Below are positions 23,100 to 60,748 of a stretch of DNA of 64,000 nt, in pieces. How positions within the stretch are numbered: the first letter of the stretch is position 1; each line of letters starts with the position of its first letter. A model generated the notes under the pieces. The model ran no database searches. It was not told where the DNA came from and worked only from the letters and a program-made list of their open reading frames with translations. Source of the DNA: a virus; IMG/VR virus record IMGVR_UViG_3300019755_000002, positions 1 through 64,000 of that record. One strand, written 5' to 3'. The position numbers were made by a program, and so were the translations under genes.

Positions 23100-23139
23100 G
23101 ATTTAAGTAACTTTTCAAAGTAGACGGAGAAAAACAAAA

Positions 23140-28721: not shown

Positions 28722-28755
28722 ATAAACAATACGAACTTAAACAGAGAGAAACGAA

Positions 28756-29643: not shown

Positions 29644-29665
29644 ACTAACTATAGGATTACACCTT

Positions 29666-29941
29666 ATGAACAAAGCACAATTAATAGAAAAAATCGCTTT
29701 AGAAGCCGAAATTAGTAAAGCCTCCGCTGAACGAGCTCTTAACGCCTTTATCAGTAATGTTAGTGATGAACTTTCCTCAGGGGGCGAAATTTCCCTTGTG
29801 GGTTTTGGTACTTTTAAAGTAGCTGACCGTGCGGCACGAACAGGCCGTAACCCACAAACGGGGGAAACGCTTCAAATTGCTGCTTCTAAAAACCCGACTT
29901 TCAAAGCGGGTAAAGTCTTGAAAGAGGCCGTAAACGCTTAA
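29666..29941 (+). CDS. hupB: HU family DNA-binding protein
   Basis: [11 protein letters not shown]...GFGTF...[10 protein letters not shown]...FKAGK; alpha versus beta assignment uncertain. Confidence 0.9.
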
Positions 29942-29957
29942 CAAAATTTAACCTAAA

Positions 29958-29983
29958 AGACTTAGAGTTAATACTCTAAGTCT
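29958..29983 (+). terminator. Hairpin after HU gene
   Basis: AGACTTAGAGT-taat-ACTCTAAGTCT; no clear U-tract. Confidence 0.45.
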
Positions 29984-30210
29984 AAGGTATTTACCAGATG
30001 AATCTAGTCACAGAAGATTTACTTTTTATTTCTTTGGTTTTTTTCCTACTTACTGTATTAATTCTTTTTTTACGCCTAGAGGCCAAGCACATCAAGCATA
30101 ACTGGCTTAAGAAAGAAGAAAACAAAAATAAGAACCTTGGAAATCACCCTCAATAAAGAGTAATATCAACACTTAAAAATTAAACGTTTATAAAAATTAG
30201 GATTGACGAT

Positions 30211-30795
30211 ATGTTAACAATATCACCAACACTTTATACGAAACTTTATCAAGACATCGTAGATTTTCGTAATGCTTTTCAACTACCTGTAAACGCGCCT
30301 GAGAAATTTTCTCTTGCCGACGACGAACTACACAACAAATTATATTTAGAAGAAACTATTGAGCTTTCAGAAGCCGACACACAAGTTAGTCGTGTTGACG
30401 CTCTGGTTGATTCTGCATACGTGCTTATGGGGCGTTTAGTCCATTTAGGGTATCGTAATTTAACCGTTGCTAGATCGTCAGAACCAGCTAGAGTCTTTGC
30501 ATTAGAAACCATCTGGAATGTTTGTCAAACCGCCTTTAAAGAAGACACTTTTGTTAAGTGTTGGGACAACATTCATGCCTCAAACCTTTCAAAAGTTTGT
30601 AAAACGGAGCAAGAGCGTGATGATACTCTGCGTAAGTATAAGAAACTTAAAATACCCACCCTTGTTGAAGAAGTTAAGGGACTATATGTCGTAAAAGTAG
30701 CTAAAGACGCCACGATTGACGACAAACATTATCCAAAAGGAAAGGTATTAAAGAATGCACATTACAAGGCAGCAGACCTTGTTCCACTAGTTTAA
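30211..30795 (+). CDS. MazG-like NTP pyrophosphohydrolase
   Basis: EETIEL...DALVDSAYV, IHASNLSK, GKVLK. Confidence 0.85.
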   Translation: MLTISPTLYTKLYQDIVDFRNAFQLPVNAPEKFSLADDELHNKLYLEETIELSEADTQVSRVDALVDSAYVLMGRLVHLGYRNLTVARSSEPARVFALETIWNVCQTAFKEDTFVKCWDNIHASNLSKVCKTEQERDDTLRKYKKLKIPTLVEEVKGLYVVKVAKDATIDDKHYPKGKVLKNAHYKAADLVPLV

Positions 30796-30827
30796 GAAAC
30801 TAACTCAAAAATTTGGATGGATTGACG

Positions 30828-33800: not shown

Positions 33801-34310
33801 CTAATGATATCCTTAGCAAGCATTTTAGGTATAACGTTAGATAATGATAAACTTCCCCATTCAAACGGTGCGGTTATCAATGATGGTGTAAAAGTGGCTT
33901 TTTACAATCGCCTTCGAGAAGAAAAAGAGGACGTAAAAACACTTTTAGGTATTAATGTTGGTTACCATAAAGAAATGCACGGCATTAGTACCGTGGTTGG
34001 TAACGCGGCTAAAGCCATGGGACTAAAACTTATTCGTAAATCGCATAAAGGCCCAAATGGTGAAATAAAAGTCCGTGTAGTCTGTCAAGAATCCTTAGCT
34101 ACTCTTCGCAGCGATATACTACGAGCTAGAGCATACAGCCCATCACCATTACACACAACACTAGCAGAGCCACCACATTCGCTAGTTAACTATGTTGCTC
34201 AGTATAATGCTGGAATGCCTGAAAGAGCACCTAGAGAACATCGATACTTATCTCAGCTTAATGACTATGAATTTGACTTACTTCACAAATTTATTAAACG
34301 AGTGGTATGA
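30828..34310 (+). CDS. Primase-like domain fused to SF2 origin-binding helicase (replication initiator)
   Basis: N-terminal FDYD / STSSG...GFHLW (AEP-like); GEKGTGKT, VVIDE, SPSLGTGVS, QHIARIR; GTG start within motif variant GGATTGACGGTG. Confidence 0.75.
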   Translation: MADMIPQVSLSIITKPSGILTKKLSVQQGRVISDSSECRISSAVANRITLPFDQVPQLLKELGNNQCCATGWANTDHTQVELMSRDKFESKHYQFPVQELPHGVYATRTLDSFTQKGQSLIMFDYDDDEACPYKINCPEQFIELLSQVIPDFNKTTYIRTFSTSSGVYDRTTGVCLKEAAGFHLWMVVPDGSDIQRFGEVLEKRLWLAGLGYIKVSTKNANLNIRTVIDTAVFSPERLVFEAGAVISDESIEQRLPSPEYNAKQYNLLDTKRLPNLSDLEEKSYQTAILNAKLADHVVKTKNEIKQRIADDFVVKAQMAGRIIPRSQAMRMVENLERHILPPFHIIYFADGSQATVMDIVANPMAFDGRECLDPIREDKGHGRSKIFANLDQAVPKPQIHSFVEGGRNFDLMASMKLLHVKTVDEEFTALRDLVTTYQSQDSEYFKAIELKPGINLIKGEKGTGKTFTIAETIRATELSVLGITPRIGLTETVSDDFGLSCYNDEKFKESHVLRSQKRLAICYDSIHKIAGQYFDIVVIDEIIQVMRHVKSSSVKFKFVCLNVLRSLILNARYVVMMDADISADYLGLLRDPDLGCCKQNVDINLILNHYKPAQRQGRKIYNYIDLEDKADEEAWGINLLEYVKDKGTFIATNARTQAYNVANEVLESWGLNVTLEQGHFITEVNGRRVITITSDNSGLSEVAQFVSNINKNLRPTDVFISSPSLGTGVSVNKREGKPVFERVYCRFTKRAGNTSADCSQHIARIRGCTEFHNIIIDTLEWQETDPELIVAQEIYGRVKAVDGYVRSNDLNFDPYMNKYVFADNNWGQWFGLMVSFENLDRNEFGLNFLTRLEQEGYTIETVKSEIAPEARTKKHEQTKRVKTKQKELETQLTVDSPLLTDEEKAELDAKSQLTVDEKRQMLKRSTADAFGEYNQDGLEGLLRLSKAALKYRRSGLYFGMNSETLLLTDLSNRLDHEKMHIEKTVHYPRWSLMISLASILGITLDNDKLPHSNGAVINDGVKVAFYNRLREEKEDVKTLLGINVGYHKEMHGISTVVGNAAKAMGLKLIRKSHKGPNGEIKVRVVCQESLATLRSDILRARAYSPSPLHTTLAEPPHSLVNYVAQYNAGMPERAPREHRYLSQLNDYEFDLLHKFIKRVV

Positions 34311-34380
34311 TAGTGGGCTAATAGCCCAAACGGACTAAAAACTGTTTGGGCTTCAACTCAAATACAGACAGATAGGATTG

Positions 34381-34869
34381 ATGATGCGTACTAAAATGAC
34401 GCTCGGGGTTAGTCGTTCAAAAACAAACACGACGACAGAAACCAAGGCAATAAAACCAGAATTCTCCAAAGAAGATAAAGATGCTTATTACTGGCTAGGT
34501 CAGGTTATGGTTGAGTTGTATCGTCTCAAGTTTAGAATTAAATGGGATAAACCCCTTGCTAAGAACTTTTACAAAAAAGTACGTAAAGTTCTAAGCAAAG
34601 ACTTTATTTCATCAAAGAATCTAAACGCCGCTATTAAACATCACGTTAAATCACCTAAATATTTATTGATGTTAAGACCCGGCGTCTTTAGACATGACCT
34701 AAAAGGGAAACCCACAGTGGCGGTCACTGAATTTGAGTCTAAGCATGCCTTAACAGAGTTATACGAGCATCATGGCGCTTTTATGCGCGACCGTAGAAAG
34801 CGGAGAAATAAACAACCTATTACCTCCACAAGGAAAAATCATGTTACGAAACACAGGCAAACCCAGTGA
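34381..34869 (+). CDS. ProQ/FinO-domain RNA-binding protein
   Basis: KPLAKNF...LNAAIKHHVKSPKYL...RHDLKGKPTVAVTEFESKHA resembles the FinO-domain pattern PLK.GI...Y...R.DL.G...G.V...HA. Confidence 0.7.
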   Translation: MMRTKMTLGVSRSKTNTTTETKAIKPEFSKEDKDAYYWLGQVMVELYRLKFRIKWDKPLAKNFYKKVRKVLSKDFISSKNLNAAIKHHVKSPKYLLMLRPGVFRHDLKGKPTVAVTEFESKHALTELYEHHGAFMRDRRKRRNKQPITSTRKNHVTKHRQTQ

Positions 34870-35272
34870 GGATGCTTATGAGTCTTGGGTAGAAGAATGT
34901 CACGGACACGTCTACCGATTTGAAGATGCTTATGATGCTAAGAAAAAAGGCAAGGCGGCATCACGAAAACCCGCCGATTACTTAATAACGTTAGGTGGTG
35001 TCAGTTGTTTAACCGAAGTAAAAAGCACGACAAAAAAATCACTTTCGTTCTCAGCCATTAGGCCAGAACAGTGGCGAAATGCTGTAAAAGTTACTAAAGC
35101 TGCGGGTATCTATACCTTCGTGATGCACTTTATTGACGAAAACAAATGGTTTGCTGTACCAGCCCAGCTATTGATTAATAGCACCAAACAGTCTATAAAT
35201 ATACTTGAAGTCGCAGAGTACGAATTTGACATAACAAAATTTGAACCAAAGCAACTTTCCTATCTGAAGTAA
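34841..35272 (+). CDS. PD-(D/E)XK Holliday junction resolvase (RecU/Hjc-like)
   Basis: GKPSE, PADY...TEVKST...IRPEQ. Confidence 0.75.
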   Translation: MLRNTGKPSEDAYESWVEECHGHVYRFEDAYDAKKKGKAASRKPADYLITLGGVSCLTEVKSTTKKSLSFSAIRPEQWRNAVKVTKAAGIYTFVMHFIDENKWFAVPAQLLINSTKQSINILEVAEYEFDITKFEPKQLSYLK

Positions 35273-35340
35273 TTGGTTGGCTCCAAAGGGAGCCGATTTT
35301 ATTCAGGTAGATACAATTTGGATTGACGATAGGATCACAC

Positions 35341-36420
35341 ATGAAAACATTCATAATGCCCGAGGGCAGCCGAGTTATAAACTTCCCTTTATCTTCTTTA
35401 GGGCCAAACTCCACCTTAGATAAATACCTTCAACATTGCTATATTCTTGGAGACCCACATTTAGGTCGTAAATTCAAAACGGGGGTTCCTATTCATCGTC
35501 TTGGTGATCGTGAACAAGCCGTCAAAGTTGATTTTCAAGAAAGTCTTATTGGCCTTAAACCAGGTAGAAAATTCCACGTTTGTATGGGGGACTTGTTTGA
35601 TAAGTTTACCGTACCAAATGAATGGGTAGAATTCGCTTATCAAACATACCGTGAAGCAGCGTTAAAGTTCCCTGCAGTGACGTTCATTGTTATTCAAGGA
35701 AACCATGACGCATCAAAAGATAAATCTAAAGTAAGTTCTTTTGAAATATTCGCTGAGCTTTGTAAGCCAATAAGCAACATTAAAGTGCTAACGGAACACC
35801 CAATATTTATCCCACACGATCAATTAAACTTTCTATTCGTTCCGTGGACTCCTTTTAAAACAACGTCTGAACTCTTAGCTTTAGAATTTCCACTATTAAA
35901 CAAAGTTAAAAATTCACCCTTTGTAGCTTTCGGCCATTGGGACACAAAAAGCCACGGTGAAGATATTTGTGAGAACATCATCCCTCACGACCATTTTACT
36001 CGTGATTGCTGTGACGGGGTGGTTACTGGTCATTATCATAAACCCGAAAGAACTATGTTAAAGAAAATTGAATTGTTTGTTACTGGGTCAATGCAGCCAT
36101 ACGCACATGGTGAAGAAGCCGACGACGTAGATAATCCTATGTACGTTACTGACACTAAAGCAAACGTCGAAGCAAAACTTATTGAAGACGAAACCTTTTA
36201 TAAAAACAAAGTGCTTAGGGTATTGGTTGAACAAGACGACACACCGTTAGCGGGTATTGATTGCTATGCACTCACCCACAAAAAGACCGCGCCGTTAGGA
36301 GAAGAAAACGACGTGGACGTGGAAATTGACGACTTTGATATTAAGGGGTTATTCAACAGCGTAATGACAGAAAAAGGCGTTTCCTCTGAACTAACGCAAG
36401 AACTATGGGCTAAATTATGA
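35341..36420 (+). CDS. SbcD/Mre11-like metallophosphoesterase nuclease
   Basis: GDPHLG, GDLFD, GNHD, GHYH. Confidence 0.9.
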   Translation: MKTFIMPEGSRVINFPLSSLGPNSTLDKYLQHCYILGDPHLGRKFKTGVPIHRLGDREQAVKVDFQESLIGLKPGRKFHVCMGDLFDKFTVPNEWVEFAYQTYREAALKFPAVTFIVIQGNHDASKDKSKVSSFEIFAELCKPISNIKVLTEHPIFIPHDQLNFLFVPWTPFKTTSELLALEFPLLNKVKNSPFVAFGHWDTKSHGEDICENIIPHDHFTRDCCDGVVTGHYHKPERTMLKKIELFVTGSMQPYAHGEEADDVDNPMYVTDTKANVEAKLIEDETFYKNKVLRVLVEQDDTPLAGIDCYALTHKKTAPLGEENDVDVEIDDFDIKGLFNSVMTEKGVSSELTQELWAKL

Positions 36421-38465
36421 TTTCAAAAATTAAATATAAAATTGACTTTAGTAATGGGAAATCTCGAAGTAACGATGCGGAGTTATTAAACGGCAGCACC
36501 ATGATCACGGGTAAAAATGGTCGCGGTAAAAGCCTAAATCTTGAAATGATTGCCTTCACATTATTTGGCACCGTAGCGCTACGTGGAAAAACGGGGGATT
36601 ACTCAAGAATAAAATCGCAAATAGATGTTACCATTAAAAATACGCCCTATGTTATTAAGCGTACTAAGAGTGGTGCCGACGTGTTAAATGTCGATGGAGA
36701 GCCACTAGCAACGGGTCATAAAGCCGTTAACGAATGGATAATATCTACATTAGGTTATGGTTATGATGTCTTCCGTATCGCGCATTGGTGCGCTCAAGGA
36801 GACATTCAAGCGTTAGCTAATATGTTACCAACACAGCGTAAGCAAATGATTGATGATGTTGCGGGCTTAACGCAAATGGACGGCCTGATTAAGCTTGTAG
36901 GTGAAGAGGCTAAAATTTATCGTGCGGGGATTACCGCTGCTGAAAGTGTCTTAATAAAACCCACCAAACCCACCAAACCCGAAGGTCAGAGCGAAGGGGA
37001 TTTAAACATAGGCCTAGAACAACTTGAAGTTGAACGTTTAGACTATTTAAAGCTGGAGGCGGAAGTTAATAGCTTACCCCCTTTAGTCGAACCTGTTAGA
37101 CCAACCGAACCTCAACCGTTAACATTACCAGCGCAACCAGAGGAATTAACGGTCGAATTGTTAGAAATTGTACCCGTGACTATTCCAGAAAATTTAGCGG
37201 GGCAAGATATTTTTCAAGTGATTAGGGACTTAAATGAACGACGTCAACAGCTAGAATCCAACCAACGGGATTTATCCGCTATTAAGCAGCAGTTATTGAC
37301 CGCACCACAGTATATTGTAGACATGATCCCAGACGTTGCCTTATTAACGCGAGAAGAACTGGAACGTCAGCATGAAGTTTATAAACAAGCGACGTTAAAG
37401 AAACAGCTTCTAGACCAAGGTGACGTTACGTGTCCCAACTGTAATGTCGCACACCCTTTAGCAAGTGACGCACTAAAGGAATACGAGAATGTTGACTTAA
37501 ACATACTAAACTCAGCACCTTTAAGTTTCCAAGACTTTGAACGTTGTCTTAAGTGGAAAGACTTGAATAGTCGCGTAGCAGAATTAGAAGCAACACTACA
37601 ACCGTTACCAACAATCTTAATGTTATTAGAGCAATTTGAGCCTATTGCGGCACAATTAAACGCTAACGAAAATGCTGAGAAAACTAATGCGGAAAAAATT
37701 GCACAGCAAGCTAAAAGTAACGAACATAACTATCGCCAATGGCAGAACACTTGCCAAAGCCTTAAGCAAAGCCACGACAATAGTGTGGCGCAGTTTAACG
37801 CTAATTTAGAAAACTTTGCCAAAGCCTGTGAAGCGCATAAAGCCGAGGTAATTAGACAAGAGCAAATAGTTAGCACTTGGCACCAATGGGGAACGGATTT
37901 CAAACTAGAGAACCAAGCGTTAATCTCGGAGGTAAATAAAGCACTTCAAACTTGGGCGACGTATCACACCCTTGTTGATGTTTATAATAAACAGCTAACA
38001 TCATACGAATTAGCTAAGAAAAGCATAGATAACGACAAAGCCCTACTTGAAGACCGAAACAAGGCTAAAGCGGCCTTGACGGAAATAAAAGCACGAGTAA
38101 AAACGTACATCGTGCCAAGCCTTAATAAAGTCGCTAGTTATCTACTTAGTGAAATGACAGGCGGTGAGCATAGCAACGTTGTTATTGATGAAAACTTTGA
38201 AGTGGACGTGGACGGCCAACCGCTTAGAACGCTGTCCGGATCGGGAAAAGACATCACAAATTTAGCCATTCGTATTGGTCTTGGAAGAATTCTCACGCAT
38301 AAAGTTTTACCCGTAATGATGTTGGATGAAATTGACGCCGCTATGGACGAAGAACGTGCTCAATATACTTGGGATTGCATACAAAAAATAACGCCCCGAA
38401 TTGGTCAAGTCCTACAAGTTAGCCATAAAGATTTACCTGCTCAACATAGAATGGAGGTGGTTTAG
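36417..38465 (+). CDS. SbcC/Rad50-like ATPase
   Basis: GKNGRGKS, coiled coil with CPNC hook, LSGSG, MLDE. Confidence 0.9.
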   Translation: MISKIKYKIDFSNGKSRSNDAELLNGSTMITGKNGRGKSLNLEMIAFTLFGTVALRGKTGDYSRIKSQIDVTIKNTPYVIKRTKSGADVLNVDGEPLATGHKAVNEWIISTLGYGYDVFRIAHWCAQGDIQALANMLPTQRKQMIDDVAGLTQMDGLIKLVGEEAKIYRAGITAAESVLIKPTKPTKPEGQSEGDLNIGLEQLEVERLDYLKLEAEVNSLPPLVEPVRPTEPQPLTLPAQPEELTVELLEIVPVTIPENLAGQDIFQVIRDLNERRQQLESNQRDLSAIKQQLLTAPQYIVDMIPDVALLTREELERQHEVYKQATLKKQLLDQGDVTCPNCNVAHPLASDALKEYENVDLNILNSAPLSFQDFERCLKWKDLNSRVAELEATLQPLPTILMLLEQFEPIAAQLNANENAEKTNAEKIAQQAKSNEHNYRQWQNTCQSLKQSHDNSVAQFNANLENFAKACEAHKAEVIRQEQIVSTWHQWGTDFKLENQALISEVNKALQTWATYHTLVDVYNKQLTSYELAKKSIDNDKALLEDRNKAKAALTEIKARVKTYIVPSLNKVASYLLSEMTGGEHSNVVIDENFEVDVDGQPLRTLSGSGKDITNLAIRIGLGRILTHKVLPVMMLDEIDAAMDEERAQYTWDCIQKITPRIGQVLQVSHKDLPAQHRMEVV

Positions 38466-38466
38466 T

Positions 38467-38709
38467 ATGTTTATTAGTGAAGAATGGTTGACGTTGTTTC
38501 TCTTAATGTCAATTTTGGGGATGCTTTATTTCTTTATCTTAGCCTTTAAGCTCGGCAAGCGGTTAGTTTATTGGGTTTGCTATTGGTATACACATTTTAC
38601 GTGCAACCATATTTATGTACCAGGTAAACACAGTCATAAAGGTTCGGTTTTATTTTGCATAAACTGCTATCGAACTAAAGAAAACAGGAAAGAGGTAAAT
38701 GGGAGGTAG
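38467..38709 (+). CDS. Small membrane protein
   Basis: GGAGG RBS; TM helix and C..C motif. Confidence 0.6.
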
Positions 38710-38716
38710 ACAACAA

Positions 38717-38959
38717 ATGAAAACAGGTCTTGCAGCCATTCTTGCCATAGCCGCTAGCGGCGTCTCTGTTCAGCAAGAGATAGAAAACGCCACTCGAAAG
38801 TCGAGTAATCGTGTGTGGAAACCTATAGCCTCAAAAGCCAAGGGGTATTCGTTCAACGACGCTGGGGTGGCTAATAAGCTATCAAGGGTTGGACGTAACG
38901 AACCCTGTCCTTGTGGCTGCGGTAAGAAATTCAAATATTGTACTTTAATTAAGGAATAA
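38717..38959 (+). CDS. SEC-C motif protein
   Basis: [17 protein letters not shown]. Confidence 0.8.
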
Positions 38960-38961
38960 AA

Positions 38962-39120
38962 ATGTTAGAACTTTTGGAATACGTCACTAGCGGTTTTTGG
39001 GTTTTCATAGGCTCAATAATTATTATACCGTTATTCTTACTTTGTACTGGCTGGGCTATCAATGCCTTACTGCTAGGTTTGTGGGGAAAGAAATGCTCAG
39101 ACATAGATATTTCACTTTAA
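38962..39120 (+). CDS. 52-aa membrane peptide
   Basis: Not in track; AAGGA RBS; hydrophobic. Confidence 0.5.
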   Translation: MLELLEYVTSGFWVFIGSIIIIPLFLLCTGWAINALLLGLWGKKCSDIDISL

Positions 39121-39154
39121 GGGGTTGTTAGTGTTTAAATTTAGGAGAACAATT

Positions 39155-39456
39155 ATGGATATGTATGGATTTATTGAAAAAATCAATCGTGAAGTTTTGC
39201 ACCCTTTGGGTTTGGCCATGACTAGAAACCCAGAAACGGCAGCAGCGATGGTCTTCTTATTTCGGATGATGGTGAATGGGAGAACGCGCCTGAAATGAAG
39301 ATAAAAACAGAAGATGCAATGGAATTAGGCTTTGCAAGAGACAACCGAAAAAGGCGCAGGCAAATGCGTAGGAATGCCCAGGCATTATTTGCGGCTGGTG
39401 GTTCTATAATGACTGTAGCTGCAAAGTGGAATTTAGAGCAAGCAAGAGCCGTATAA
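39155..39456 (+). pseudogene. Frameshifted small phage gene
   Basis: AGGAG RBS; INREVLHPLGLAMTRNPET continues as GSSDGLLISDDGEWE only after a frameshift near 39238; may be a sequencing error. Confidence 0.5.
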
Positions 39457-39552
39457 CCTTTGCGTTAAGCGGTGAGTGAAAGTTAGTGTGTTTTTGGCTA
39501 ACTGTAAGGAATCCGATGAGCGCAGCGAATGAATTTGAACGCGTTGTTAGAA
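39451..39552 (-). repeat. Integron attC-like site 1 (102 bp)
   Basis: Minus strand reads TTCTAAC-AACGC-GTTCAAAT...GCTTAAC-GCAAAG-GTTATAC (R''-L''...L'-R' with an extra C in L''). Confidence 0.85.
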
Positions 39553-39580
39553 TTGGCGTTAACTAAAAGGTATAATTAAA

Positions 39581-39898
39581 ATGGAACAAGCTTTAGCGGC
39601 AGTTTACGCAGAGGGTGAAAAGGCTTTTCATACTGGTAGTGTGAACCCCTACCCAAACACAGATCAGTACTGGGGTGAATGGACGGCAGGATGGACGGCT
39701 GAAAAATTAAAAGCAGAAAATAAAAACAAGGTAGAAACTATTGAAAATATAGGTCTATCAAAAAACAAACAAAAAGCAATTAAGCAATTTTCGGAAATGA
39801 TAGCCAAAGATTGTGCTGAATTGATTGAAACGGTAATAGAAAAACGAGTGAGAATGTACGCTACTCATTTAGCTGAAATAATGCAAAAAGATGATTAG
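39581..39898 (+). CDS. Cassette ORF, hypothetical
   Basis: Between attC1 and attC2. Confidence 0.75.
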   Translation: MEQALAAVYAEGEKAFHTGSVNPYPNTDQYWGEWTAGWTAEKLKAENKNKVETIENIGLSKNKQKAIKQFSEMIAKDCAELIETVIEKRVRMYATHLAEIMQKDD

Positions 39899-39901
39899 TC
39901 A

Positions 39902-39995
39902 TTCTAACCTTTGCGTTAAGCGGTGAGTGAAAGTTGGGAACCAACTGTAACGAGTCCGACGAATGAAATGAGTGAATTTAAACGCGTTGTTAGTG
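39902..39995 (-). repeat. Integron attC-like site 2 (94 bp)
   Basis: Shares TAACCTTTGCGTTAAGCGGTGAGTGAAAGTT and TGAATTT.AACGCGTTGTTAG with site 1. Confidence 0.85.
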
Positions 39996-40022
39996 ACGCA
40001 TTACGGGAATACTGGAGATAAT

Positions 40023-40277
40023 ATGCCAATTACAAAAGAGCAGCTAAAGGAAACTAAAGTTCCTTACTTAATAGTAGCTGACTGTAGAGCAGGAAAGAGA
40101 AAAGGACTACCTAAAAAAGAACAACCTAGCACCGTTGTTGGTTATTCAGTGAATGACCCCCTAGGTGTTGGTGGTGGTATTTTTGACACAAACCCATGTG
40201 TTTATTTTAAAAGTGGTGGATGGGTATTACTAAGCGACTTTGTGAAGAACCACTCTATTGTGAGTAATGCGCACTAA
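40023..40277 (+). CDS. Cassette ORF, hypothetical
   Basis: GGAG RBS; stop codon overlaps the TAAC of attC3. Confidence 0.75.
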   Translation: MPITKEQLKETKVPYLIVADCRAGKRKGLPKKEQPSTVVGYSVNDPLGVGGGIFDTNPCVYFKSGGWVLLSDFVKNHSIVSNAH

Positions 40278-40329
40278 CCTTTAACTTAAGCGGCAAGCTG
40301 TTTTTGTCACGTTGAATTATTTGTTATGT
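40272..40329 (-). repeat. Integron attC-like site 3 (58 bp)
   Basis: + strand CACTAAC-CTTTAA-CTTAAGC...CGTTGAAT-TATTT-GTTATGT; L boxes pair imperfectly. Confidence 0.7.
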
Positions 40330-40356
40330 TACCACGAAATAACGGAGATAAATATA

Positions 40357-41043
40357 ATGAAAACGACATACTGTAGTGATCGCGTTGAGCCTGTTGTTAG
40401 CTTTGCTGCTACACCATTAAATACTGAATCAATGAGGCAGCACAGAGAAAGATGGTTAAACAGGATTCAAGAAGCGGAGAGTAAATTTAACATAATAGAG
40501 AATTGCGTTCATGAAATACTAAACGACATAGAAGAGGATAAAATAACAACCTTAAAATCTGTTTATGATCGATTACTAATAGCGGTAAAGAAATCAAACT
40601 TAACCCCGACACCAGAAGCTAGAGTCGCAATGATTATTTATAGCGATGAATATGAAAAACAGTGCGGGGGATCAATGGATTTTTTTGATTCGCTAGATGA
40701 AGATAGAAAGCACCGATGTAAATTGGTGGTGGCAACATTAAATAACCTATCAGCAACGGATAAGAAGGTGTTACTAACCGCTTTAAGAAGCAAGGGTTTT
40801 ACGAAGAATAAAGTATACGCCGATAGCTTAGAAAAAAAACGTGAGTTTAATTCAGCAATAAAGTTAACGAGTCTAGGTCTTATTAATGGTGAGGTTACTT
40901 ATGAACATACTAATGGCTATGCTGTAACTGGGTTTGGTAGAACTTGGGTTGACGGTAAGTCATGGAATAGTTTTAAAGGTGAGTTAACGAAAAAGGGGAT
41001 CGAGGTGGCAAAAGTCCTTCTCCCCCACATTAGACCCGTTTAA
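40357..41043 (+). CDS. Hypothetical protein, possibly mosaic
   Basis: GGAG RBS; attC half-site remnant TTGAGCCTGTTGTTAG at about 40385-40400. Confidence 0.7.
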   Translation: MKTTYCSDRVEPVVSFAATPLNTESMRQHRERWLNRIQEAESKFNIIENCVHEILNDIEEDKITTLKSVYDRLLIAVKKSNLTPTPEARVAMIIYSDEYEKQCGGSMDFFDSLDEDRKHRCKLVVATLNNLSATDKKVLLTALRSKGFTKNKVYADSLEKKREFNSAIKLTSLGLINGEVTYEHTNGYAVTGFGRTWVDGKSWNSFKGELTKKGIEVAKVLLPHIRPV

Positions 41044-41099
41044 TTTATATCGTGAAAAGACAGAAACAAAATAACAAAATAACAAAATGATATTATTTC

Positions 41100-41128
41100 T
41101 TGACCTCAAGACGTCTTAAAGGTACTTT
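41100..41128 (+). promoter_or_regulatory. Sigma70-like promoter for the DUF4224/xis operon
   Basis: TTGACC-17 bp-TACTTT with an A-rich upstream element. Confidence 0.6.
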
Positions 41129-41196
41129 ATGCAGACAAGGAACGACAACAACGTCCTTGTCCTACAAATTAACTGATTGACGATATTGAGGTAACG

Positions 41197-41535
41197 ATGT
41201 CCGCGAATAACCACCAGCGTAGTCCTATACGCTTAGATTTAGTCCCTAATGACTTACTCACACCCGAAGACCTTTTTACCCTAACGGGTTACGAAGACCC
41301 AAAGTTTCAAGCCAAAGTCCTAAAAGAAAACAATATCTTTTACTTAAAAGTTAGACGAAACGAAATCCGTACTACCTGGTATCACATCAACAACCCCATA
41401 CATTTACGCGTCCCCCATTTGGCTCAGGCAGATGGTGGTGTCGGTTGGAATAAGAGTTTCCAACCTCGTGTGGATTCGGTTCCCAAACCAGATGCCACGG
41501 ATATAGCAAGCACGTTAGAAGCGTATAATAATTAA
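41197..41535 (+). CDS. DUF4224-like protein
   Basis: LLTPEDLFTLTGY...QAKVLKENNIFY. Confidence 0.7.
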   Translation: MSANNHQRSPIRLDLVPNDLLTPEDLFTLTGYEDPKFQAKVLKENNIFYLKVRRNEIRTTWYHINNPIHLRVPHLAQADGGVGWNKSFQPRVDSVPKPDATDIASTLEAYNN

Positions 41536-41550
41536 CTTTGGATTGACGAT

Positions 41551-41802
41551 ATGAACAACCAGAACACTCTTGGGGTAAACACCAACATGTCCCCACTTCA
41601 ACAAAGCAAACATCAAAAATATTGGAGTACAAAACAAGTATGTGAACGATTTGGATATATATCGTCACGCACACTCTCTAGATGGGTCGAGTCCAGAGGA
41701 TTCCCGCCGTCGGTTACACCTGAAGGAGAGGCGAATTTATACTCCATTGAAGCCATCCTCTTGTGGGAAGAAAACTATTTCACCCAACCAGATATAGCCT
41801 AA
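41551..41802 (+). CDS. AlpA/excisionase-like HTH protein
   Basis: STKQVCERFGYISSRTLSRWVESRGFPP; near the integrase. Confidence 0.8.
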   Translation: MNNQNTLGVNTNMSPLQQSKHQKYWSTKQVCERFGYISSRTLSRWVESRGFPPSVTPEGEANLYSIEAILLWEENYFTQPDIA

Positions 41803-41811
41803 GGAATAAGC

Positions 41812-42021
41812 ATGTTTCTATATCTTCTACAATTTGTGGGTCTATTCCTGTTTCTAGGGCTATCGGGGTCAATGATTATCCTCGGAATTTTAGCCCTAAC
41901 AAATGCGGGATTTTCAGAGCCTAATCCGGTACAGAAAGTTTTTGGTTTACTAAGTGTCTGTACAGGTATCTTAGGTTTATACCTTATCTTTAGTTCCATA
42001 ACATTAACCATTAACCATTAA
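41812..42021 (+). CDS. Two-TM small protein
   Basis: AAGGA RBS; two hydrophobic helices. Confidence 0.65.
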   Translation: MFLYLLQFVGLFLFLGLSGSMIILGILALTNAGFSEPNPVQKVFGLLSVCTGILGLYLIFSSITLTINH

Positions 42022-42136
42022 CTAACGAGAAAATTATGTTAAAAACTCCGTTCAAAGAAACAAGAATAACATATGCCGTAAGACATGCCTTAGCACAACC
42101 TGAGTACTACCGACCAAAATCGGAGGATAAAGACTA

Positions 42137-42409
42137 ATGGCTGACACCGAATCGACACTCATTGAGAGAGGAAAAAATTACGGTCGCTTTCAAAGTGGTG
42201 CTACTACCATGCAAAACTTAAAAAACGTGATACGTGATAACAAAGGCTATGAACACTTAACCGCACCTCAGCGTGAAGCTCTTGACATGATCTTACACAA
42301 AGTAGGTCGTATTGTTAACGGTAATGCGGAACACGTTGATAGTTGGCACGACATTAGTGGCTATGCTCAATTAATTGAAAATCAAATTAAGGGTATTGGT
42401 GAACAATAA
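42137..42409 (+). CDS. DUF6378-like protein
   Basis: ERGKNYG...KVGRI..G...DSWHDISGYAQL. Confidence 0.75.
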   Translation: MADTESTLIERGKNYGRFQSGATTMQNLKNVIRDNKGYEHLTAPQREALDMILHKVGRIVNGNAEHVDSWHDISGYAQLIENQIKGIGEQ

Positions 42410-42433
42410 TCCGTGAAATAAAGGTGGTGATAT

Positions 42434-42676
42434 ATGTTAAAAGAAGTAAAACCCGTACCAACCGTTGGTGTAGATACCAAAACGGTACAAGCTTTAGAGT
42501 CATTATTAGCCTCGGCTAAAAAAGGTGACTTAAAGAGCGTTATTTATATCGATCAATACAAAGATGGTAAGTGTGGCCACGGCTGGGCTGGTAAACCTGA
42601 CAACAACATGCTGGGACAAATTGAGGACTGTAAATTCAACATTATATCCCAACGATATTTTACGGTTCAAGAATAA
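42434..42676 (+). CDS. Hypothetical protein
   Basis: GGTGG RBS. Confidence 0.7.
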   Translation: MLKEVKPVPTVGVDTKTVQALESLLASAKKGDLKSVIYIDQYKDGKCGHGWAGKPDNNMLGQIEDCKFNIISQRYFTVQE

Positions 42677-42683
42677 CCTAACC

Positions 42684-42707
42684 AAGACCTACGTATGTAG
42701 GTCTTTT
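42684..42707 (+). terminator. Intrinsic terminator-like hairpin
   Basis: AAGACCTAC-gtat-GTAGGTCTT-TT. Confidence 0.5.
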
Positions 42708-42729
42708 AACTTTAGATAGGAATAAAAAT

Positions 42730-43056
42730 ATGTCAAACAGAAAAAGTACGATGGTCGAATTGGTTGATGAACTCAAGAAGTTACCTAAATCCCCCGACAT
42801 TAACTTCATGATCCAAGAAGCTTTAGCAGGAGAATACCACGATTATAAGAATGAGAAGTATGTCTGTGGGAAGATGGAAAGCTCTCAACGATTAAGGACA
42901 TTGGGTTATCCTGACTTAGCTCAGCGTATTGAGAATGGTGAGTTTGACGAAACGTGCGACGATGATGATAAAGAACGTCTTGCTAAGGAATTAACGGAAA
43001 ACATGCCGCCAGAACAAGCACAATCATTAATTAACGCCTTAGGCCTTAACGAATAA
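42730..43056 (+). CDS. Hypothetical protein
   Basis: AGGA RBS. Confidence 0.7.
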   Translation: MSNRKSTMVELVDELKKLPKSPDINFMIQEALAGEYHDYKNEKYVCGKMESSQRLRTLGYPDLAQRIENGEFDETCDDDDKERLAKELTENMPPEQAQSLINALGLNE

Positions 43057-43069
43057 TAGGATTGACGAT

Positions 43070-43666
43070 ATGAGCCATCAACAGATAAATCAAAGCTCAG
43101 GTAATGTTGAATACTACACCTCTGAAGAACTACTTGTCTTAGTACGAGAAGTGTTGGGAACAATAGACCTCGACCCAGCAAGCTGCTCGTTAGCGAATGA
43201 AGTGGTAAAGGCAAAAAATATTTTTACCAAAGAGAACGACGGCCTAAGTCACTCTTGGTTTGGTAAAGTGTTTATGAACCACCCCTTCCATAAGGGAGAA
43301 AAACCGTGTAAGAAAAACTGCAAAAAGAAAATTTGCCAACCGAGCAACGACCCTAAAAAACCTACGCGTGGTCATTGTATCGATTATGAAATCCCTGGCA
43401 ATGCCATCTGGACGAATAAACTTGCCGATGAATACTATAAGGGCAATATTGAAGAGGCTATTTGTATAACGTTCTCATCAATGTCTGAAGATTGGATGTG
43501 GCCGCTACTTCAAGAAGTGCAATGCTTCCCGCGCGGTAGAGTACATTATCGAAAGCCTGACGGTACAGTTGACCGACAAGCAACGAAAGGTAGTGTGTTA
43601 ACTTACTTCGGTAAGAATCCTGAGAAGTTCGAGGCCGTTTTCAGTGCTATAGGCAAAGTAAAATAA
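43070..43666 (+). CDS. Phage DNA N6-adenine methyltransferase (Dam-like family)
   Basis: EYYT, IDLDPAS, DGLSHSW.G.VFMNHPF (NPPY variant), RGRVHY. Confidence 0.8.
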   Translation: MSHQQINQSSGNVEYYTSEELLVLVREVLGTIDLDPASCSLANEVVKAKNIFTKENDGLSHSWFGKVFMNHPFHKGEKPCKKNCKKKICQPSNDPKKPTRGHCIDYEIPGNAIWTNKLADEYYKGNIEEAICITFSSMSEDWMWPLLQEVQCFPRGRVHYRKPDGTVDRQATKGSVLTYFGKNPEKFEAVFSAIGKVK

Positions 43667-56400: not shown

Positions 56401-58194
56401 ATCTTGTGCATTTTGGTCAACTAATGGTCCTAAGTATTGACGTTCCCAATCCAATTCAGAATCTATATATGAAGAAACTATTTCATTCGGTCGCTCAGTT
56501 AAATCCGTATGGCTGTAAGTAAAGACCACGTTAGGACTCGTTTCGATACACTGCTCAGGGGTAATGGTGGCTACTGCGGCTGTGTTCCTGTCAGCAACAA
56601 TAACTAACTGACCATGTTCATCATCATAGGCCTGAGCATTGGCCGAGCCTAAAATGTAGTTGATAAGATCTAACCCATTTTGCTTTTCAGTGATCACACC
56701 ATTAAAAGTAAAACGCGCATGTTCCCCACCATCACCGTCTGACAACATTTCATCCGCATGTTTCGCTAACGTGTAGACGCGATATCTGTCTATCGTAACT
56801 CGTGGGTTTATACGGTAATAACCTATTCTAGTATTTGTTACTAGTTCATAGGCGATCCAAAAAGGGTTATCCGTCCATCTTTTTTCAGTTTTAAATTCCC
56901 CATCCCAAACAATGCTCTCATCATATGTTTTGGTCTCTGGGTTATAGTTGGTTGGTACTGAACAAAGTAAACCTTTCCATACCCCAGAAATATTTGGTAG
57001 GTTTTGAATTTCACTATTAAGTAGAGCGGCCACATGCAACATTGCCGTCCCTGCATGATATTCTGCCTCAGCTTCCGAACCAGCAATACCCACGTTTTCT
57101 GTTTCATAACTTAACCAAGAGATTCGTTGAATAAATTCTTCATCGTTCTCAACGCCAACTAACGTAACCGAAAGTTCAACGCCTTTTTCACTATTTGGTA
57201 CCGTAAAAGTGTAGCCTCGAACAAAGCCACCAACAGTTGTTTTTCCCTCGACAGTTATTTTGTCCGTTAATAGTGTTGGATTAGAAACTAAGTCATCTTC
57301 TTCAATAACGAGACGCCCCCACCCATCGACCACAATCCATTTAACCAACAAATCCATGCCTAATTCTTCTCTGGAATGCCTTTCAGCCACTTTTTCGGCA
57401 TAAAACTGGGCAAACTCTGCCTGAGTTTTACTTATCGTAGCCCCCCATTCATCGCGTTCAAGTTCAAGTTGAAACCACACCTGAGAATAGAAATATTTTT
57501 CGTATTTATTCGTCTCGATATTTAAAATCCAAGCACCGACAAGCGTACCTTGCTGACCTGCTTCGTAATAGAGTCCGAGATAATAGATATTAACGCGCCG
57601 AGGAATGGCTCCATTCTCTGGAGACATACCACCAGAAGATTCATCGGAAATAACCCGCTGCTTTATCGCCGTCCAATCTTCACCAATATAACGCCACTTT
57701 ATTGCTAATTCCGCACTTGACGATTTATACCCCTCATCAGTTGCGCGATATAATTGCTGTACAGCTAAGCGAATTTCAACTCGGTTATATTGTCCTGCAA
57801 TAGCTGCGGGTATCGTCCTAGTAAGTGTAACGTCGTCTACCAGTGTAGCATTAACAACGTGAGGAGAAGTGTTTCCGCCAAGTAGGTAAGCAATAGGACT
57901 TTGACCGTAAAGATTGTCTTCTAAATCCGTCAACACTTTTCCAGATTCAGACCGTAGAATAAACTCGGCTTCAGGAAATTGAAGTTCACCATTAACGTCT
58001 CGTATCGCAGTGTCATCCACAAAAAGATTCGCTAATTTTTCTTCTTCCGTGTCACCGTCTAGGCCATAGATTGGGCCTTCACAAATACCAAGAAGCATTT
58101 CAAAGCCGTCAGTAGACCATAACGAATCTCTATCGTTACCAGCGTCATTTCCGCCACCACTGCCCGAGGCAAATGTGGTCTTCATCTTCGTCAT
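53404..58194 (-). CDS. Central tail tip / host specificity protein (lambda gpJ-like)
   Basis: ICEGPIYG, VPTNYNP, WTDNPFW, FNIII-like region, ADKIAA repeats; start moved to the ATG after the motif variant. Confidence 0.92.
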   Translation of the reverse strand: MTKMKTTFASGSGGGNDAGNDRDSLWSTDGFEMLLGICEGPIYGLDGDTEEEKLANLFVDDTAIRDVNGELQFPEAEFILRSESGKVLTDLEDNLYGQSPIAYLLGGNTSPHVVNATLVDDVTLTRTIPAAIAGQYNRVEIRLAVQQLYRATDEGYKSSSAELAIKWRYIGEDWTAIKQRVISDESSGGMSPENGAIPRRVNIYYLGLYYEAGQQGTLVGAWILNIETNKYEKYFYSQVWFQLELERDEWGATISKTQAEFAQFYAEKVAERHSREELGMDLLVKWIVVDGWGRLVIEEDDLVSNPTLLTDKITVEGKTTVGGFVRGYTFTVPNSEKGVELSVTLVGVENDEEFIQRISWLSYETENVGIAGSEAEAEYHAGTAMLHVAALLNSEIQNLPNISGVWKGLLCSVPTNYNPETKTYDESIVWDGEFKTEKRWTDNPFWIAYELVTNTRIGYYRINPRVTIDRYRVYTLAKHADEMLSDGDGGEHARFTFNGVITEKQNGLDLINYILGSANAQAYDDEHGQLVIVADRNTAAVATITPEQCIETSPNVVFTYSHTDLTERPNEIVSSYIDSELDWERQYLGPLVDQNAQDKHGANVLEYESVGCIYAQEAWRKMYFRLISSQTETMSVTFMLPNAGIRFELFDIINIVDPDQDWGISGRILALENKKVTFRDPIYLEESGTFYFLVQTQSDAIETISFTVDRVGFFKELTLSVAPTLDLPQYPAFSIQRENSAPGISKPFRIVSISEVDPESKAVSLTAVEVNRNKHDAADNLLLTNKPSFNFDNPKTGESPQNITVLKQEYVNVKDQRQLNLWLTWDSPSKVYLGAYYELQVFKDGVDTGLRLTTNATLIEVPNVTVGDYGFTVVMVYNDKKFYSDLFKWTINELSFVLGEYSEDQLFTSLSFSFNQGDLTCLIEAEYLFDVDAPRSKMPLLSSGLISGVRFSLIDNKTETLLLEGTSSDGEITYTLLEHLKKLGAASNDLRLEFQLIDQQGEYSVLRVENITADGVPLIVDIETNVVRQSLSASPLFDELVIEDVLVEWWIAKVIEGEPLPNIVDAELIRTAPTLVDYFNLDADSQYLLWARSIGPFGTTAFFPEQGGVLVYINESPLSGEGELIEEIQAELDTIPRAWDAMVNDIRLAAGQALITQEGLINKQAIVDEGVTRSQQLGTLWQELGNLNGLFPITTTNISNNSISTPKLMANSVLADKIAANQIYANHITANAVTADKISANAVIADKIAAGAVVADKLAANSVLASKIAAGAITADKIAAYAITAGKIKALAIEAVHLAANSVTTSKLAADIVLAVDATFTGRLLCSSGNAKLDFNPATGKCDIETTSIKMRGGNGGSFSVTENNQGSTAFIFSDSSGYSRCYIPEKGGIISQPPASYVPADFDARGYSDWGLYISNRNAANNWRGIFSPGGVSPFTGRHICIVKTPHIIEVGDLVSRARVVVKSDISNSISEVKKTETFKEKNVYGVYSEALTLATYLNSYDQLPLGMTWEQLSEEFDMDDELVTINSVGEGLINVCGLGGNILDGDNLCSSAMAGKAQQQDDDLVYNYTVAESHEDVIFDYPEQVKQIACTYRF

Positions 58195-58234
58195 ATCGTC
58201 AATCATTCCAAATTTTAGTTACTTAGTTGTTTAA

Positions 58235-59225: not shown

Positions 59226-59703
59226 AACCTCCTAGTTTCTTTTTAGCCTCGTAAGGTAACTGGGATAAAATTACGGGGTTAACACTAGATAAGGTTCGTT
59301 CCATTTCCGTATGCCTTAAGACTTTTTTAACGCGCATTCTCCACTTTGGAGAATACTCTTCAATAAAACTACGTTGACCTTCCAAATGATGAAGGATTTT
59401 TCCTTGACCAACGTAGGTTGCAACGTGATTTGGGTGTTGCGGTCTACCCAAGCTAAGCAATAAAACATCACCTAGTCTAACATTTCTAGGATTATCACCA
59501 ACATCAACAAAACCCTGATTTTGAAATTCAGAAACAAAAAAGTTTAAATCTGGGTGAAGATACCAAAGATGTGGGCGAGCAAGGTCTATTAGCGTAACAT
59601 CCAAATACGACTGAAATAATTGCTGTACTAGGGTGTAACAATCTTGCCACCCCTCAACATACTCTTTACCTTGTAATGACAAAGCGGCATCAAAAAGAAT
59701 CAT
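59212..59703 (-). CDS. NlpC/P60 tail protein (gpK C-terminal-like)
   Basis: DCY, NHVATYVG...ILHH. Confidence 0.88.
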   Translation of the reverse strand: MILFDAALSLQGKEYVEGWQDCYTLVQQLFQSYLDVTLIDLARPHLWYLHPDLNFFVSEFQNQGFVDVGDNPRNVRLGDVLLLSLGRPQHPNHVATYVGQGKILHHLEGQRSFIEEYSPKWRMRVKKVLRHTEMERTLSSVNPVILSQLPYEAKKKLGGFGNA

Positions 59704-60185
59704 AAGCGCACCTGATTAAATTCAGGCTGTGTGAAACGTCTAGGCGGCAACATAAAATTATTACCATCCGACAGGTAGTTTAATTGGCAACTAATCATTT
59801 GACGATTAACTTCAACAATACGACTAACGTAAAATTGATTCGTTAAGCTTTCATTACTGTCAAGATTCTCTGGATGGACTAAATACTGGGTTACTCTCGC
59901 ATTATCCAAGTAACCTTTTTGGATGTAATAACTGTAAACACCTTCTGGGTTCGGCAATATTAATCGTGGACGTGTTTTTTCACCCCCGCTTTTATCACCT
60001 AAACCACTTAGATTAAAAGCGACTTTACTCCAAGTAAGACCATTCCATTCTAGGGTTTGTGACAAGCAAAAGTGCTGAACAACGGGGCCGTCGTCAGTTT
60101 CAATGTATATTTTTAGAAGTTCATAGGGCGCAGAGCTATTCAAGGAATGCTTCTCTTGCTCCATTCCCGAAGGCAAAACTTTCAT
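59700..60185 (-). CDS. Minor tail protein (gpL-like)
   Basis: Position between M and K; RPRLILPN, LP.R; RBS carries GGATTGACGAT. Confidence 0.75.
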   Translation of the reverse strand: MKVLPSGMEQEKHSLNSSAPYELLKIYIETDDGPVVQHFCLSQTLEWNGLTWSKVAFNLSGLGDKSGGEKTRPRLILPNPEGVYSYYIQKGYLDNARVTQYLVHPENLDSNESLTNQFYVSRIVEVNRQMISCQLNYLSDGNNFMLPPRRFTQPEFNQVRL

Positions 60186-60228
60186 ATCGTCAATCCAGAT
60201 TGTCGTTGTTCTTAAATTTGACTATAGC

Positions 60229-60267
60229 AAAAAAAATAAAACCTCGGAACATAAAAATGCTCCGAGG
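60229..60267 (-). terminator. Intrinsic terminator of the predicted sRNA
   Basis: CCUCGGAGCAU-UUUU-AUGUUCCGAGG, 11-bp stem with a G-U pair possible only on the minus strand, then UUUUAUUUUUUUU. Confidence 0.85.
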
Positions 60268-60305
60268 CCAACTATTGGATTGACGATATGTGCCTTACGA
60301 CGCAT
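60232..60305 (-). ncRNA. Predicted phage sRNA (about 75 nt) with seed CAUAUCGUCAAUCCAAUAGUU
   Basis: Own predicted promoter and terminator; seed is the reverse complement of the RBS motif found 23 times; ends approximate. Confidence 0.75.
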
Positions 60306-60310
60306 ACCAC

Positions 60311-60340
60311 AAGATAACATTACCCGTAAACAAGCGACAA
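60311..60340 (-). promoter_or_regulatory. Sigma70-like promoter of the predicted sRNA
   Basis: TTGTCG-18 bp-TATCTT with extended -10 TG. Confidence 0.6.
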
Positions 60341-60361
60341 GTCCAGACATTTTAAGATAAT

Positions 60362-60748
60362 TTATCTCGGCTGTTCTTTAAATTCCAAAGTAAACCCTTG
60401 ACTAACACCATTACCCTCCTTCAATAACTTTGGTGCTTCAAATGGTGCTGAAAACATCACCACAAGCACACCATGTAAGTAGTGTTCGTACTCAAAAGCT
60501 TTGTGTGTTTCATGTTCTTGGTAAAACCTCTCCAACGCCAAAAGATTTATCTCTGGATTTATTATCTCACTCACCAAGCCATCCTCATCAAGGAAGTATT
60601 TCATGGCGTTAAAACTCAACTTAAAAGTTCTCGCTGGGGGCGAATTGGGCTTAATCGTATGAGTCCAACCACCACCAAGGTCAACTTGGCTGTTTCTCTT
60701 TGGGTATGAATGTTGAACTTCATGGTACGGGAAATTAAACACCTCCAC
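60362..60748 (-). CDS. Minor tail protein (gpM-like)
   Basis: Directly after the tape measure gene; FYQEH...KAF. Confidence 0.8.
   Translation of the reverse strand: MEVFNFPYHEVQHSYPKRNSQVDLGGGWTHTIKPNSPPARTFKLSFNAMKYFLDEDGLVSEIINPEINLLALERFYQEHETHKAFEYEHYLHGVLVVMFSAPFEAPKLLKEGNGVSQGFTLEFKEQPR

Follow-up and report, generated by a model that had tools for sequence, protein, structure and literature searches.

A candidate small RNA gene that mirrors a shared ribosome-site tag in a temperate marine phage

The element described here lies within the first 64,000 bases of the virus record IMGVR_UViG_3300019755_000002 (78,716 bp in full, with direct terminal repeats); this stretch is called the window, and its source the window phage. 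In a gap between two tail genes resembling gpM and gpL, the minus strand carries the exact reverse complement of a sequence, hereafter the tag, which covers the ribosome sites of about 30 of the phage's own genes. As the best explanation, we consider it rather likely that the gap encodes a trans-acting small RNA of the RocR/RocC type, which is phage-encoded and directed against the ribosome-binding sites (RBSs) of the phage's own genes. Such an RNA would start with a 5′ stem-loop, expose an anti-Shine-Dalgarno seed and end in an intrinsic terminator and its U tail. Its seed would pair with the tag at about 30 gene starts and with orphan tags in the leader of the early operon, and by occluding the ribosome site this pairing would jointly damp the translation of replication, excision, lysis, head and tail genes. 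A ProQ/FinO protein of the phage would probably bind the terminator, helping and stabilising the RNA. A tag-like 5′ arm would mask the 5′ half of the seed, and because this half is masked, the open anti-Shine-Dalgarno part could serve as a toehold. We infer a discrete RNA species, its action in trans, repression and the partnership with the ProQ-type protein; the layout of the element, its conservation and its covariation with the tag are solid. A first-pass annotation of the window had already proposed one minus-strand RNA with a seed against the shared Shine-Dalgarno (SD)–AUG tag. The comparative tests below support this idea.

The tag, GGATTGACGAT(ATG), is found in sense orientation at approximately 30 gene starts in both strand blocks of the genome, in which genes are oriented along the plus strand until about 43.7 kb and along the minus strand beyond. 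Counted across all 78,716 bp, sense copies with at most two mismatches directly precede open reading frames (ORFs) at 30 places. Within the window, the tag 16-mer was matched 16 times at up to three mismatches (0.59 expected), and its 11-mer core 23 times at up to one mismatch (0.59 expected). Judged by its placement, the tag is a private sequence of 11–16 nucleotides (nt) that takes in the SD, the spacer and the AUG at the starts of some 30 of the approximately 98 genes. Besides the genes listed in Table 1, the Rz-like spanin and central tail fibre genes are tagged, and so are the capsid, tape-measure chaperone and tape-measure genes, which were assigned by position and by a size match to Pseudoalteromonas phage KB12-38. 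This 78.3-kb siphovirus is the sole close relative in GenBank; its genes without a tag have ordinary GGAG-type sites. Two other explanations of the tag were tried and rejected, namely extended pairing with 16S rRNA, for which a by-eye comparison with the usual bacterial 16S 3′ end matched only GGA, and a CsrA-type GGA site, which leaves the antisense copy unexplained.

A hairpin and ATTAAACTAAAA stand before many of the tags, which are thus part of a standard intergenic cassette. At many sites between 1780 and 17310 on the plus strand, this repeated cassette consists of a GC hairpin and ATTAAACTAAAA(T/C)T, with the tag following 4–6 nt later. The cassette may act as a promoter specific to the phage or as an A-rich enhancer of translation, and it resembles the inverted repeats of the 'extended' start-associated sequences (SAS) of Cluster K phages. 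An orphan tag was also observed at 23501-23516 (plus strand; position 58740 of the KB12-38 record). In both phages it directly follows a hairpin, and it precedes the start of a gene for a protein of 364 amino acids (aa), annotated as a kinase in KB12-38, by approximately 50 nt (window phage) or 60 nt (KB12-38). The tag may therefore mark transcript 5′ ends rather than a ribosome site as such.

All sequence features that had been described for the gap on the minus strand are present at the positions originally given (Table 1). Among the 25 exact GGATTGA[C/T] sites, 60277 alone is antisense to its neighbouring genes, which bears out the earlier claim of a single antisense copy. On its layout, the gap probably encodes a small non-coding RNA that measures about 80 nt, extends roughly from 60310 to 60229 on the minus strand and forms part of the trans-acting system proposed above. 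The terminator hairpin comprises 13 pairs; three of them are G-U pairs, each of which becomes a C-A mismatch if read on the plus strand, so that the stem's G-U pairing is confined to the minus strand as had been noted. On this strand, it is the only strong terminator between 58000 and 64000. A 77-nt stretch folds far better than its shuffles (z = −5.85). In the predicted folds, the 5′ half of the seed is partly masked by the 5′ stem-loop. With regard to the promoter, the hexamers TTGTCG and TATCTT named in the first-pass annotation are present with their 18-nt spacing; however, with 8 of 12 consensus positions they fail the consensus scan, for which a threshold of 9/12 was set, and they do not occupy the conserved promoter position. 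The candidate that aligns with the promoters of the relatives, TGGACT/TAATGT, is the weaker of the two, and both versions fall below the threshold in the window phage (7–8/12). The Rfam search that had been proposed, made on 59000-61500 at E values up to 10, returned no family match and only chance microRNA and snoRNA hits.

Table 1. Coordinates of the features discussed, in window numbering
Feature	Position	Strand	Remarks
Sense tags at plus-strand gene starts (about 20)	span 1809..43072	+	DNA ligase, methyltransferases, exonuclease, primase/helicase, SbcD-like, excisionase, others
Early-operon leader tags	6751..6789	+	Partial tag 6751-6762 and orphan tag 6773-6789 without a following start codon
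Tag at start of first early gene	6867..6883	+	Divergent from gene 6152-6634; −25.2 kcal/mol
ProQ/FinO-domain protein, candidate chaperone	34384..34869	+	161 aa, basic C-terminal tail; Pfam PF04352, E = 1.3e-10, 41.6 bits vs cutoff 27
Excisionase	41197-41535	+	In the plus-strand block, tagged
Integrase	43668-44975	-	
Tag variant at start of central tail fibre J-like gene	58192..58207	-	Distal target; sequence covaries in relatives
gpL-like minor tail protein gene	59700..60185	-	Downstream of gap; tblastn to 'minor tail protein' genes of KB12-38, JWF and Lumi
Tag at gpL ribosome site	60183..60198	-	Predicted to pair in cis with the seed where read-through RNA is made
Intrinsic terminator	60229..60269	-	Hairpin 60269-60240 and 11-nt U-rich tail 60239-60229
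Seed	60275..60290	-	Exact 16-nt reverse complement of tag TTGGATTGACGATATG; only antisense tag copy; complementarity to some targets extends to 60270
Predicted 5′ stem-loop	60282..60310	-	3′ arm is the 5′ half of the seed; from folds
ATGCGTCG	starts 60305	-	
Promoter-like hexamers of the first-pass annotation	60311..60340	-	TTGTCG 60340-60335, 18 nt, TATCTT 60316-60311; 8/12 consensus
Candidate promoter aligned with those of relatives	span 60317..60345	-	TGGACT 60345-60340, 17 nt, TAATGT 60322-60317; placed by alignment
gpM-like tail gene	60362..60748	-	Upstream of gap; follows tape-measure gene, as in KB12-38

The comparison covered four phages, namely the window phage, KB12-38 and the metagenome contigs L025 (6.4 kb examined of the 79.6-kb contig JACCDZ010909500.1) and L026 (4.0 kb examined), whose proteins were 51% and 41% identical to the window phage in the metagenome scan. 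All three relatives keep a gap of approximately 185 bp, in which a sigma70-like promoter is followed by an anti-tag seed and then by a hairpin and its U-run. In KB12-38, the same two genes enclose TTGACT-17-TACTAT (9/12), then a 5′ stem and the anti-tag, and finally a hairpin whose base is unchanged and a U-run at about position 13,820 of the record. The gap of L025 holds TTGACA-16-TAATAT (10/12) and that of L026 TTGCCA-17-TATATT (10/12, with TG), each followed by the anti-tag, a GC hairpin and a U-run. The sigma70-like promoter was called in the three relatives and not in the window phage; the terminator is found in all four, and the anti-SD part of the seed is unpaired in the predicted folds of all four. 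The module is common to these phages although their flanking proteins are only 41–55% identical. Between the window phage and KB12-38, the RNA region is 77% identical compared with about 67% for the neighbouring coding DNA, and the segment from seed to stem is nearly invariant. Pairing is kept throughout the upper stem by three two-sided compensatory changes and one change from G-C to G-U. In distant relatives (Achromobacter phages JWF and 2-1, Xylophilus phage Lumi, IMG/VR contigs) the gap is missing and the two genes abut. Scans of IMG/VR with the gpL-, gpM- and ProQ-like proteins yielded only distant relatives without the gap, or nothing, and pattern scans of the same database with the seed-plus-stem sequence and the L025 seed yielded chance matches only.

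This conservation bears on the notion that the gap holds only an ordinary terminator after the gpM-like gene, beside a neutral inverted remnant of the tag cassette, or else a tiny ORF on either strand. Terminators between tail genes are common, and ORFs of 27 codons (minus strand, from 60305) and 9 codons (plus strand, from 60288) can indeed be read. However, a neutral remnant would not be expected to survive at 41–55% protein identity or to change in step with the tag, and the more distant relatives lack any gap. As for the ORFs, a 1-nt indel shifts the minus-strand frame in KB12-38 and no ATG exists there in L025 and L026, while the start codon of the plus-strand frame is absent in L025 and L026. 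This indel and the missing start codons indicate selection on the nucleic acid and not on a peptide, and we regard both versions as highly improbable.

Covariation of seed and ribosome-site motif in related phages had been put forward as a check on the small RNA, and the two do covary. The KB12-38 seed has U in place of the C of the window phage, matching the commonest KB12-38 tag, GGATTGACAAT. L025 carries the tags GGACTAACAAC at gpL and GGGCTAACAAC at the start of gpJ, to which its own seed is complementary with one G-U pair. Compared with GGATTGACGAT, the L025 tag shows four differences, all of them transitions, the class of change for which an RNA duplex can use G-U pairs as intermediates. 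In the window phage, KB12-38 and L025, the first (5′) half of the seed is paired with a 5′ arm whose sequence differs from phage to phage and is matched to the seed of that phage. Covariation of this kind is only sensible for an RNA made from the minus, gene-sense strand. The specificity of the seeds follows the same lines: at ≤ −18 kcal/mol, the seeds of the window phage and KB12-38 each find 23 start regions in their own genome, and those of L025 and L026 recognise 0–1 start regions of the window phage or KB12-38. Among the relatives examined, none was found that bears the tag and lacks the antisense copy, a combination that would have spoken against the small RNA, and the tag-less relative has neither the gap nor a match to the chaperone.

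Joint change of tag and mirror copy would also be expected if a phage or host protein bound the tag, either as DNA in the manner of a stoperator or as RNA in the manner of RegA, with the reversed copy acting as a decoy or autoregulatory site and both changing through altered protein specificity. The strict orientation bias is like that of the Cluster A stoperators, and for the SAS, Pope et al. left an RNA or a protein ligand open (PMC3203893). Furthermore, TTGACGAT is kept in tags even where GGA is displaced by 2–3 nt, and both phages conserve an orphan tag ahead of one gene start, at a distance of approximately 50 nt in the window phage and 60 nt in KB12-38. However, this account leaves unexplained why, on the gene-sense strand, a promoter-like site always precedes the reversed copy and a terminator always follows it, why the G-U pairs work on one strand only, why the 5′ arm covaries with the seed and why all four differences of the L025 tag are transitions, and no candidate protein was identified. 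We therefore consider a protein reader unlikely.

Returning to the proposed small RNA, 26 of the 98 start regions of the window phage pair with the seed at ≤ −16 kcal/mol. At a cutoff of −14 kcal/mol the count is 27 of 98, against a mean of 5.9 for shuffled seeds. A point overlooked in the first-pass annotation is that any read-through transcript would also contain the ribosome site of the gene that follows, with which the seed would pair in cis. The anti-tag could accordingly belong to the 3′ end or leader of a tail message and pair just with the gpL ribosome site on read-through RNA, setting the gpL level or an RNase III site, with all other matches being a by-product of the alikeness of the tags. 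The predicted probability of this pairing is approximately 1 in all four phages, the gpL start is tagged in all four, and in phage P1, c4 and its target likewise share an operon, with c4 upstream (PMC12197685). Against a purely local role stand the pairing energies. In KB12-38, the cis gpL site ranks only 27th of 83 annotated starts, with −16.8 kcal/mol compared with −24 to −29 kcal/mol for the best sites, and in L025 and L026 the distal site at the gpJ start pairs better with the phage's own seed than the cis site does. Each of the four phages has a distant site that equals or surpasses the adjacent gene's ribosome site in its pairing with the seed, and the seed thus appears to follow the consensus tag and not the neighbouring one. 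Moreover, a conserved promoter and a strong terminator within 50–75 nt make a self-contained unit, and the extra complementarity to orphan tags in the early leader of two phages has no explanation in cis. A restriction to gpL is in our estimation improbable.

These orphan tags are the strongest predicted targets of the small RNA. In an unbiased scan, the best non-self site of the window genome was the orphan tag of the early leader (6763-6796, duplex −29.0 kcal/mol), and the equivalent site of KB12-38 at about 41485 also ranked first with −33.7 kcal/mol. In both complete genomes, the pairing extends beyond the tag through extra flanking complementarity. This conserved top target in the early leader is a pointer to the lysis–lysogeny switch. 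The early region itself (6640-6883, plus strand) starts with operator-like AT-rich inverted repeats, followed by a hairpin-bearing leader, tags, a second hairpin at 6825-6842 and the tagged first gene; the stretch 41440-41570 of KB12-38 has the same plan. An identification of the divergent gene 6152-6634 as a repressor was not obtained. Because the unit looks like an autonomous 'moron' and the early leader is the top target, our guess is that the RNA is most likely used as a layer of lysogeny maintenance or homo-immunity.

The suggestion of a ProQ-dependent RNA in the first-pass annotation gains weight from the genome itself, which encodes a protein with a ProQ/FinO domain (Table 1). Sequence matches in the PDB were ProQ (5nb9) and RocC (7rgt), of which RocC was covered best, over nearly the whole domain; a single-sequence AlphaFold model was too poor for use, with a predicted local distance difference test score (pLDDT) of 46. 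The KB12-38 homologue is 52% identical and annotated PFAM-ProQ, and among 50,697 GenBank phages, KB12-38 was the only one besides the window phage in which the gene was matched. In the window phage, the start of the ProQ gene carries a tag variant. The gap element, the tag and the ProQ gene are all present in the window phage and KB12-38, and none of the three was detected in the outgroup Lumi: there, the gap is absent, tblastn gave no match to the ProQ protein of the window and no shared start tag was found, the top start 8-mer occurring at 3 of 45 starts compared with 21 of 83 in KB12-38. FinO-domain proteins bind terminator hairpins with 3′ U tails (PMC9674577, PMC6744872, PMC9977716). The RNA of the window is predicted to have this ligand shape, hairpin and U tail, and by analogy the ProQ/FinO protein would be its partner.

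Several points weigh against a trans-acting small RNA. The promoter of the window phage is weak (7–8/12), and the true source of the RNA may be the tape-measure/gpM message, of which it would form the 3′ end. On read-through RNA, the seed is predicted to pair with the gpL ribosome site with a probability of approximately 1 in all four phages, and a cis effect would therefore be real if read-through occurs. One RNA facing about 30 abundant messages poses a problem of stoichiometry. A protein that recognises the tag in DNA or RNA and co-evolves with it could also account for the covariation, and the L025-type tag was seen at two gene starts, within the 6.4 kb examined. Changes among tag variants were wobble-compatible in 20 cases versus 2 others in KB12-38 and in 7 versus 6 in the window phage (7 versus 2 without the first two positions); this bias involves few sites, is weak in the window phage and is only suggestive. 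Finally, the start of the KB12-38 ProQ gene has no tag.

Among known systems, RocR/RocC appears to be closest in mechanism, and the start-associated sequences of Cluster K phages in genome pattern. RocR of Legionella pneumophila is a short trans-acting RNA whose terminator hairpin and U tail are bound by the FinO-domain protein RocC; several mRNAs that carry a common box in their 5′ leaders are silenced together when the RocR seed pairs with this box (PMC6744872, PMC9674577). Seed, shared box and FinO-domain gene are all present in the window phage as well. However, RocR is encoded on chromosomes or plasmids and its five targets belong to a single pathway, whereas here RNA and chaperone would both be phage-encoded, the box is the ribosome site, and the targets would be about 30 of the phage's own genes. 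The two RNAs have no sequence or Rfam relationship.

The SAS and extended SAS (ESAS) of Cluster K are asymmetric motifs located 0–7 nt before many start codons and nearly all in one orientation, often with inverted repeats just upstream and with a single reverse copy away from gene starts (PMC3203893). Their ligand was considered to be possibly 'RNA or protein' (PMC3203893), and their function was still unresolved in 2025 (PMC12699233). The window phage likewise has an asymmetric motif in one orientation at many starts and a lone reverse copy away from them. However, its tag GGATTGACGAT departs from the SAS consensus of actinobacteriophages, GGGATAGGAGCCC, and with a different motif, host phylum and phage lineage it is an analogue and not a member. 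SAS are confined to non-structural genes, whereas the window phage tags its head and tail genes, too. In Mycobacterium phage Anaya, the single reverse SAS lies in the 385-bp non-coding gap between gp96 and gp97 (about 59,789-59,949 of the record; 34790-34950 of L037), where it forms the 10-nt loop of a strong hairpin on the gene-sense, plus-strand RNA (fold z = −4.2); the seed of the window, by contrast, is a linear single-stranded stretch before the terminator. In the 36-kb right part of Anaya, where most genes are annotated only as hypothetical, the named products did not include a FinO-domain protein.

In phages P1 and P7, the c4 RNA is encoded upstream of and co-directionally with its target, is complementary to it around the RBS and blocks its translation, and differences between seed and target result in P1/P7 heteroimmunity (PMC12197685). 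This group also includes P4 CI and P22 sar. Similarly, the seed at 60290-60275 lies upstream of and on the same strand as the gpL ribosome site at 60198-60183, with a predicted pairing of approximately 1. In contrast to c4, which is cut from a longer transcript and acts on one operon (icd-ant), the window RNA has a candidate promoter and terminator of its own and would have about 30 dispersed targets of many functions. The Rfam scan of 59000-61500 gave no match to the curated C4 RNA family, and no antirepressor gene was identified. In F-like plasmids, a mobile element likewise encodes an antisense RNA covering an RBS, FinP, together with the FinO-domain protein that protects it and speeds its pairing (PMC9977716). 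Unlike FinP, a cis-antisense RNA with the single target traJ, the window RNA is proposed to be trans-encoded and to have many targets.

Global regulation by a phage at the ribosome-binding sites of many of its own messages is established for T4, where RegA, a translational repressor, and RegB, an endoribonuclease, are proteins. They act on loosely defined natural SD regions, unlike the RNA and private tag proposed here. The stoperators of Cluster A mycobacteriophages share only the orientation bias with the tag; a stoperator-type reading is disfavoured by the position of the tag on SD and AUG, the transitions-only divergence and the covariation at the RNA level.

A literature search found no paper describing such a system and none linking start-associated sequences to a small RNA, and a 2025 review of phage small RNAs mentions neither ProQ nor a self-regulon of multiple targets. 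If the proposal is true, the phage runs a third of its genome through one small RNA by means of a private RBS tag, and supplies an RNA chaperone of its own for this purpose. This would be the broadest self-directed small RNA regulon known in a virus, and the first job proposed in the searchable literature for a phage-encoded ProQ/FinO protein. It would also give a concrete answer to the purpose of start-associated sequences, a question from 2011 (PMC3203893) that was live in 2025 (PMC12699233). An easy way of switching whole phage programmes on or off would suggest itself, and immunity groups could be placed on a new basis. With Pseudoalteromonas phage KB12-38, a cultured relative with a host exists.

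A more speculative extension, which we put forward only tentatively, is that the system determines immunity specificity at the RNA level. The small RNA of a prophage, loaded onto the phage's own ProQ/FinO protein, would hold down the lytic programme, including that of incoming phages with the same tag. Tag and seed could drift through G-U intermediates into new heteroimmune lineages, from GGATTGACGAT to GGATTGACAAT and separately to GGACTAACAAC, and the same logic might explain the start-associated sequences of Cluster K and their lone reverse copy.

With regard to the phage as a whole, the presence of both an integrase and an excisionase gene indicates that this marine, Pseudoalteromonas-type phage is temperate. 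Its tail genes share about 67% nucleotide identity with those of KB12-38, and the proteins flanking the gap are 55% identical. DNA-modification genes are dense at 12782-16872 and 43070-43666 (plus strand), with the counterpart region of KB12-38 at 46448-55293. PAPS-reductase and DndB-like genes are taken from the KB12-38 annotation and not from the window, in which only the DNA methyltransferases at 13984-15522 and 43070-43666 were confirmed among the modification genes. No prophage relative was found in the prokaryote species genomes scanned. The protein encoded at 59700-60185 (P0001) is present in identical copies on four contigs, the longest of which measures 444 kb and may hold the phage as an integrated prophage. 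A variant of this protein with at least 90% identity (P0004) is located on a 78.8-kb Tara contig.

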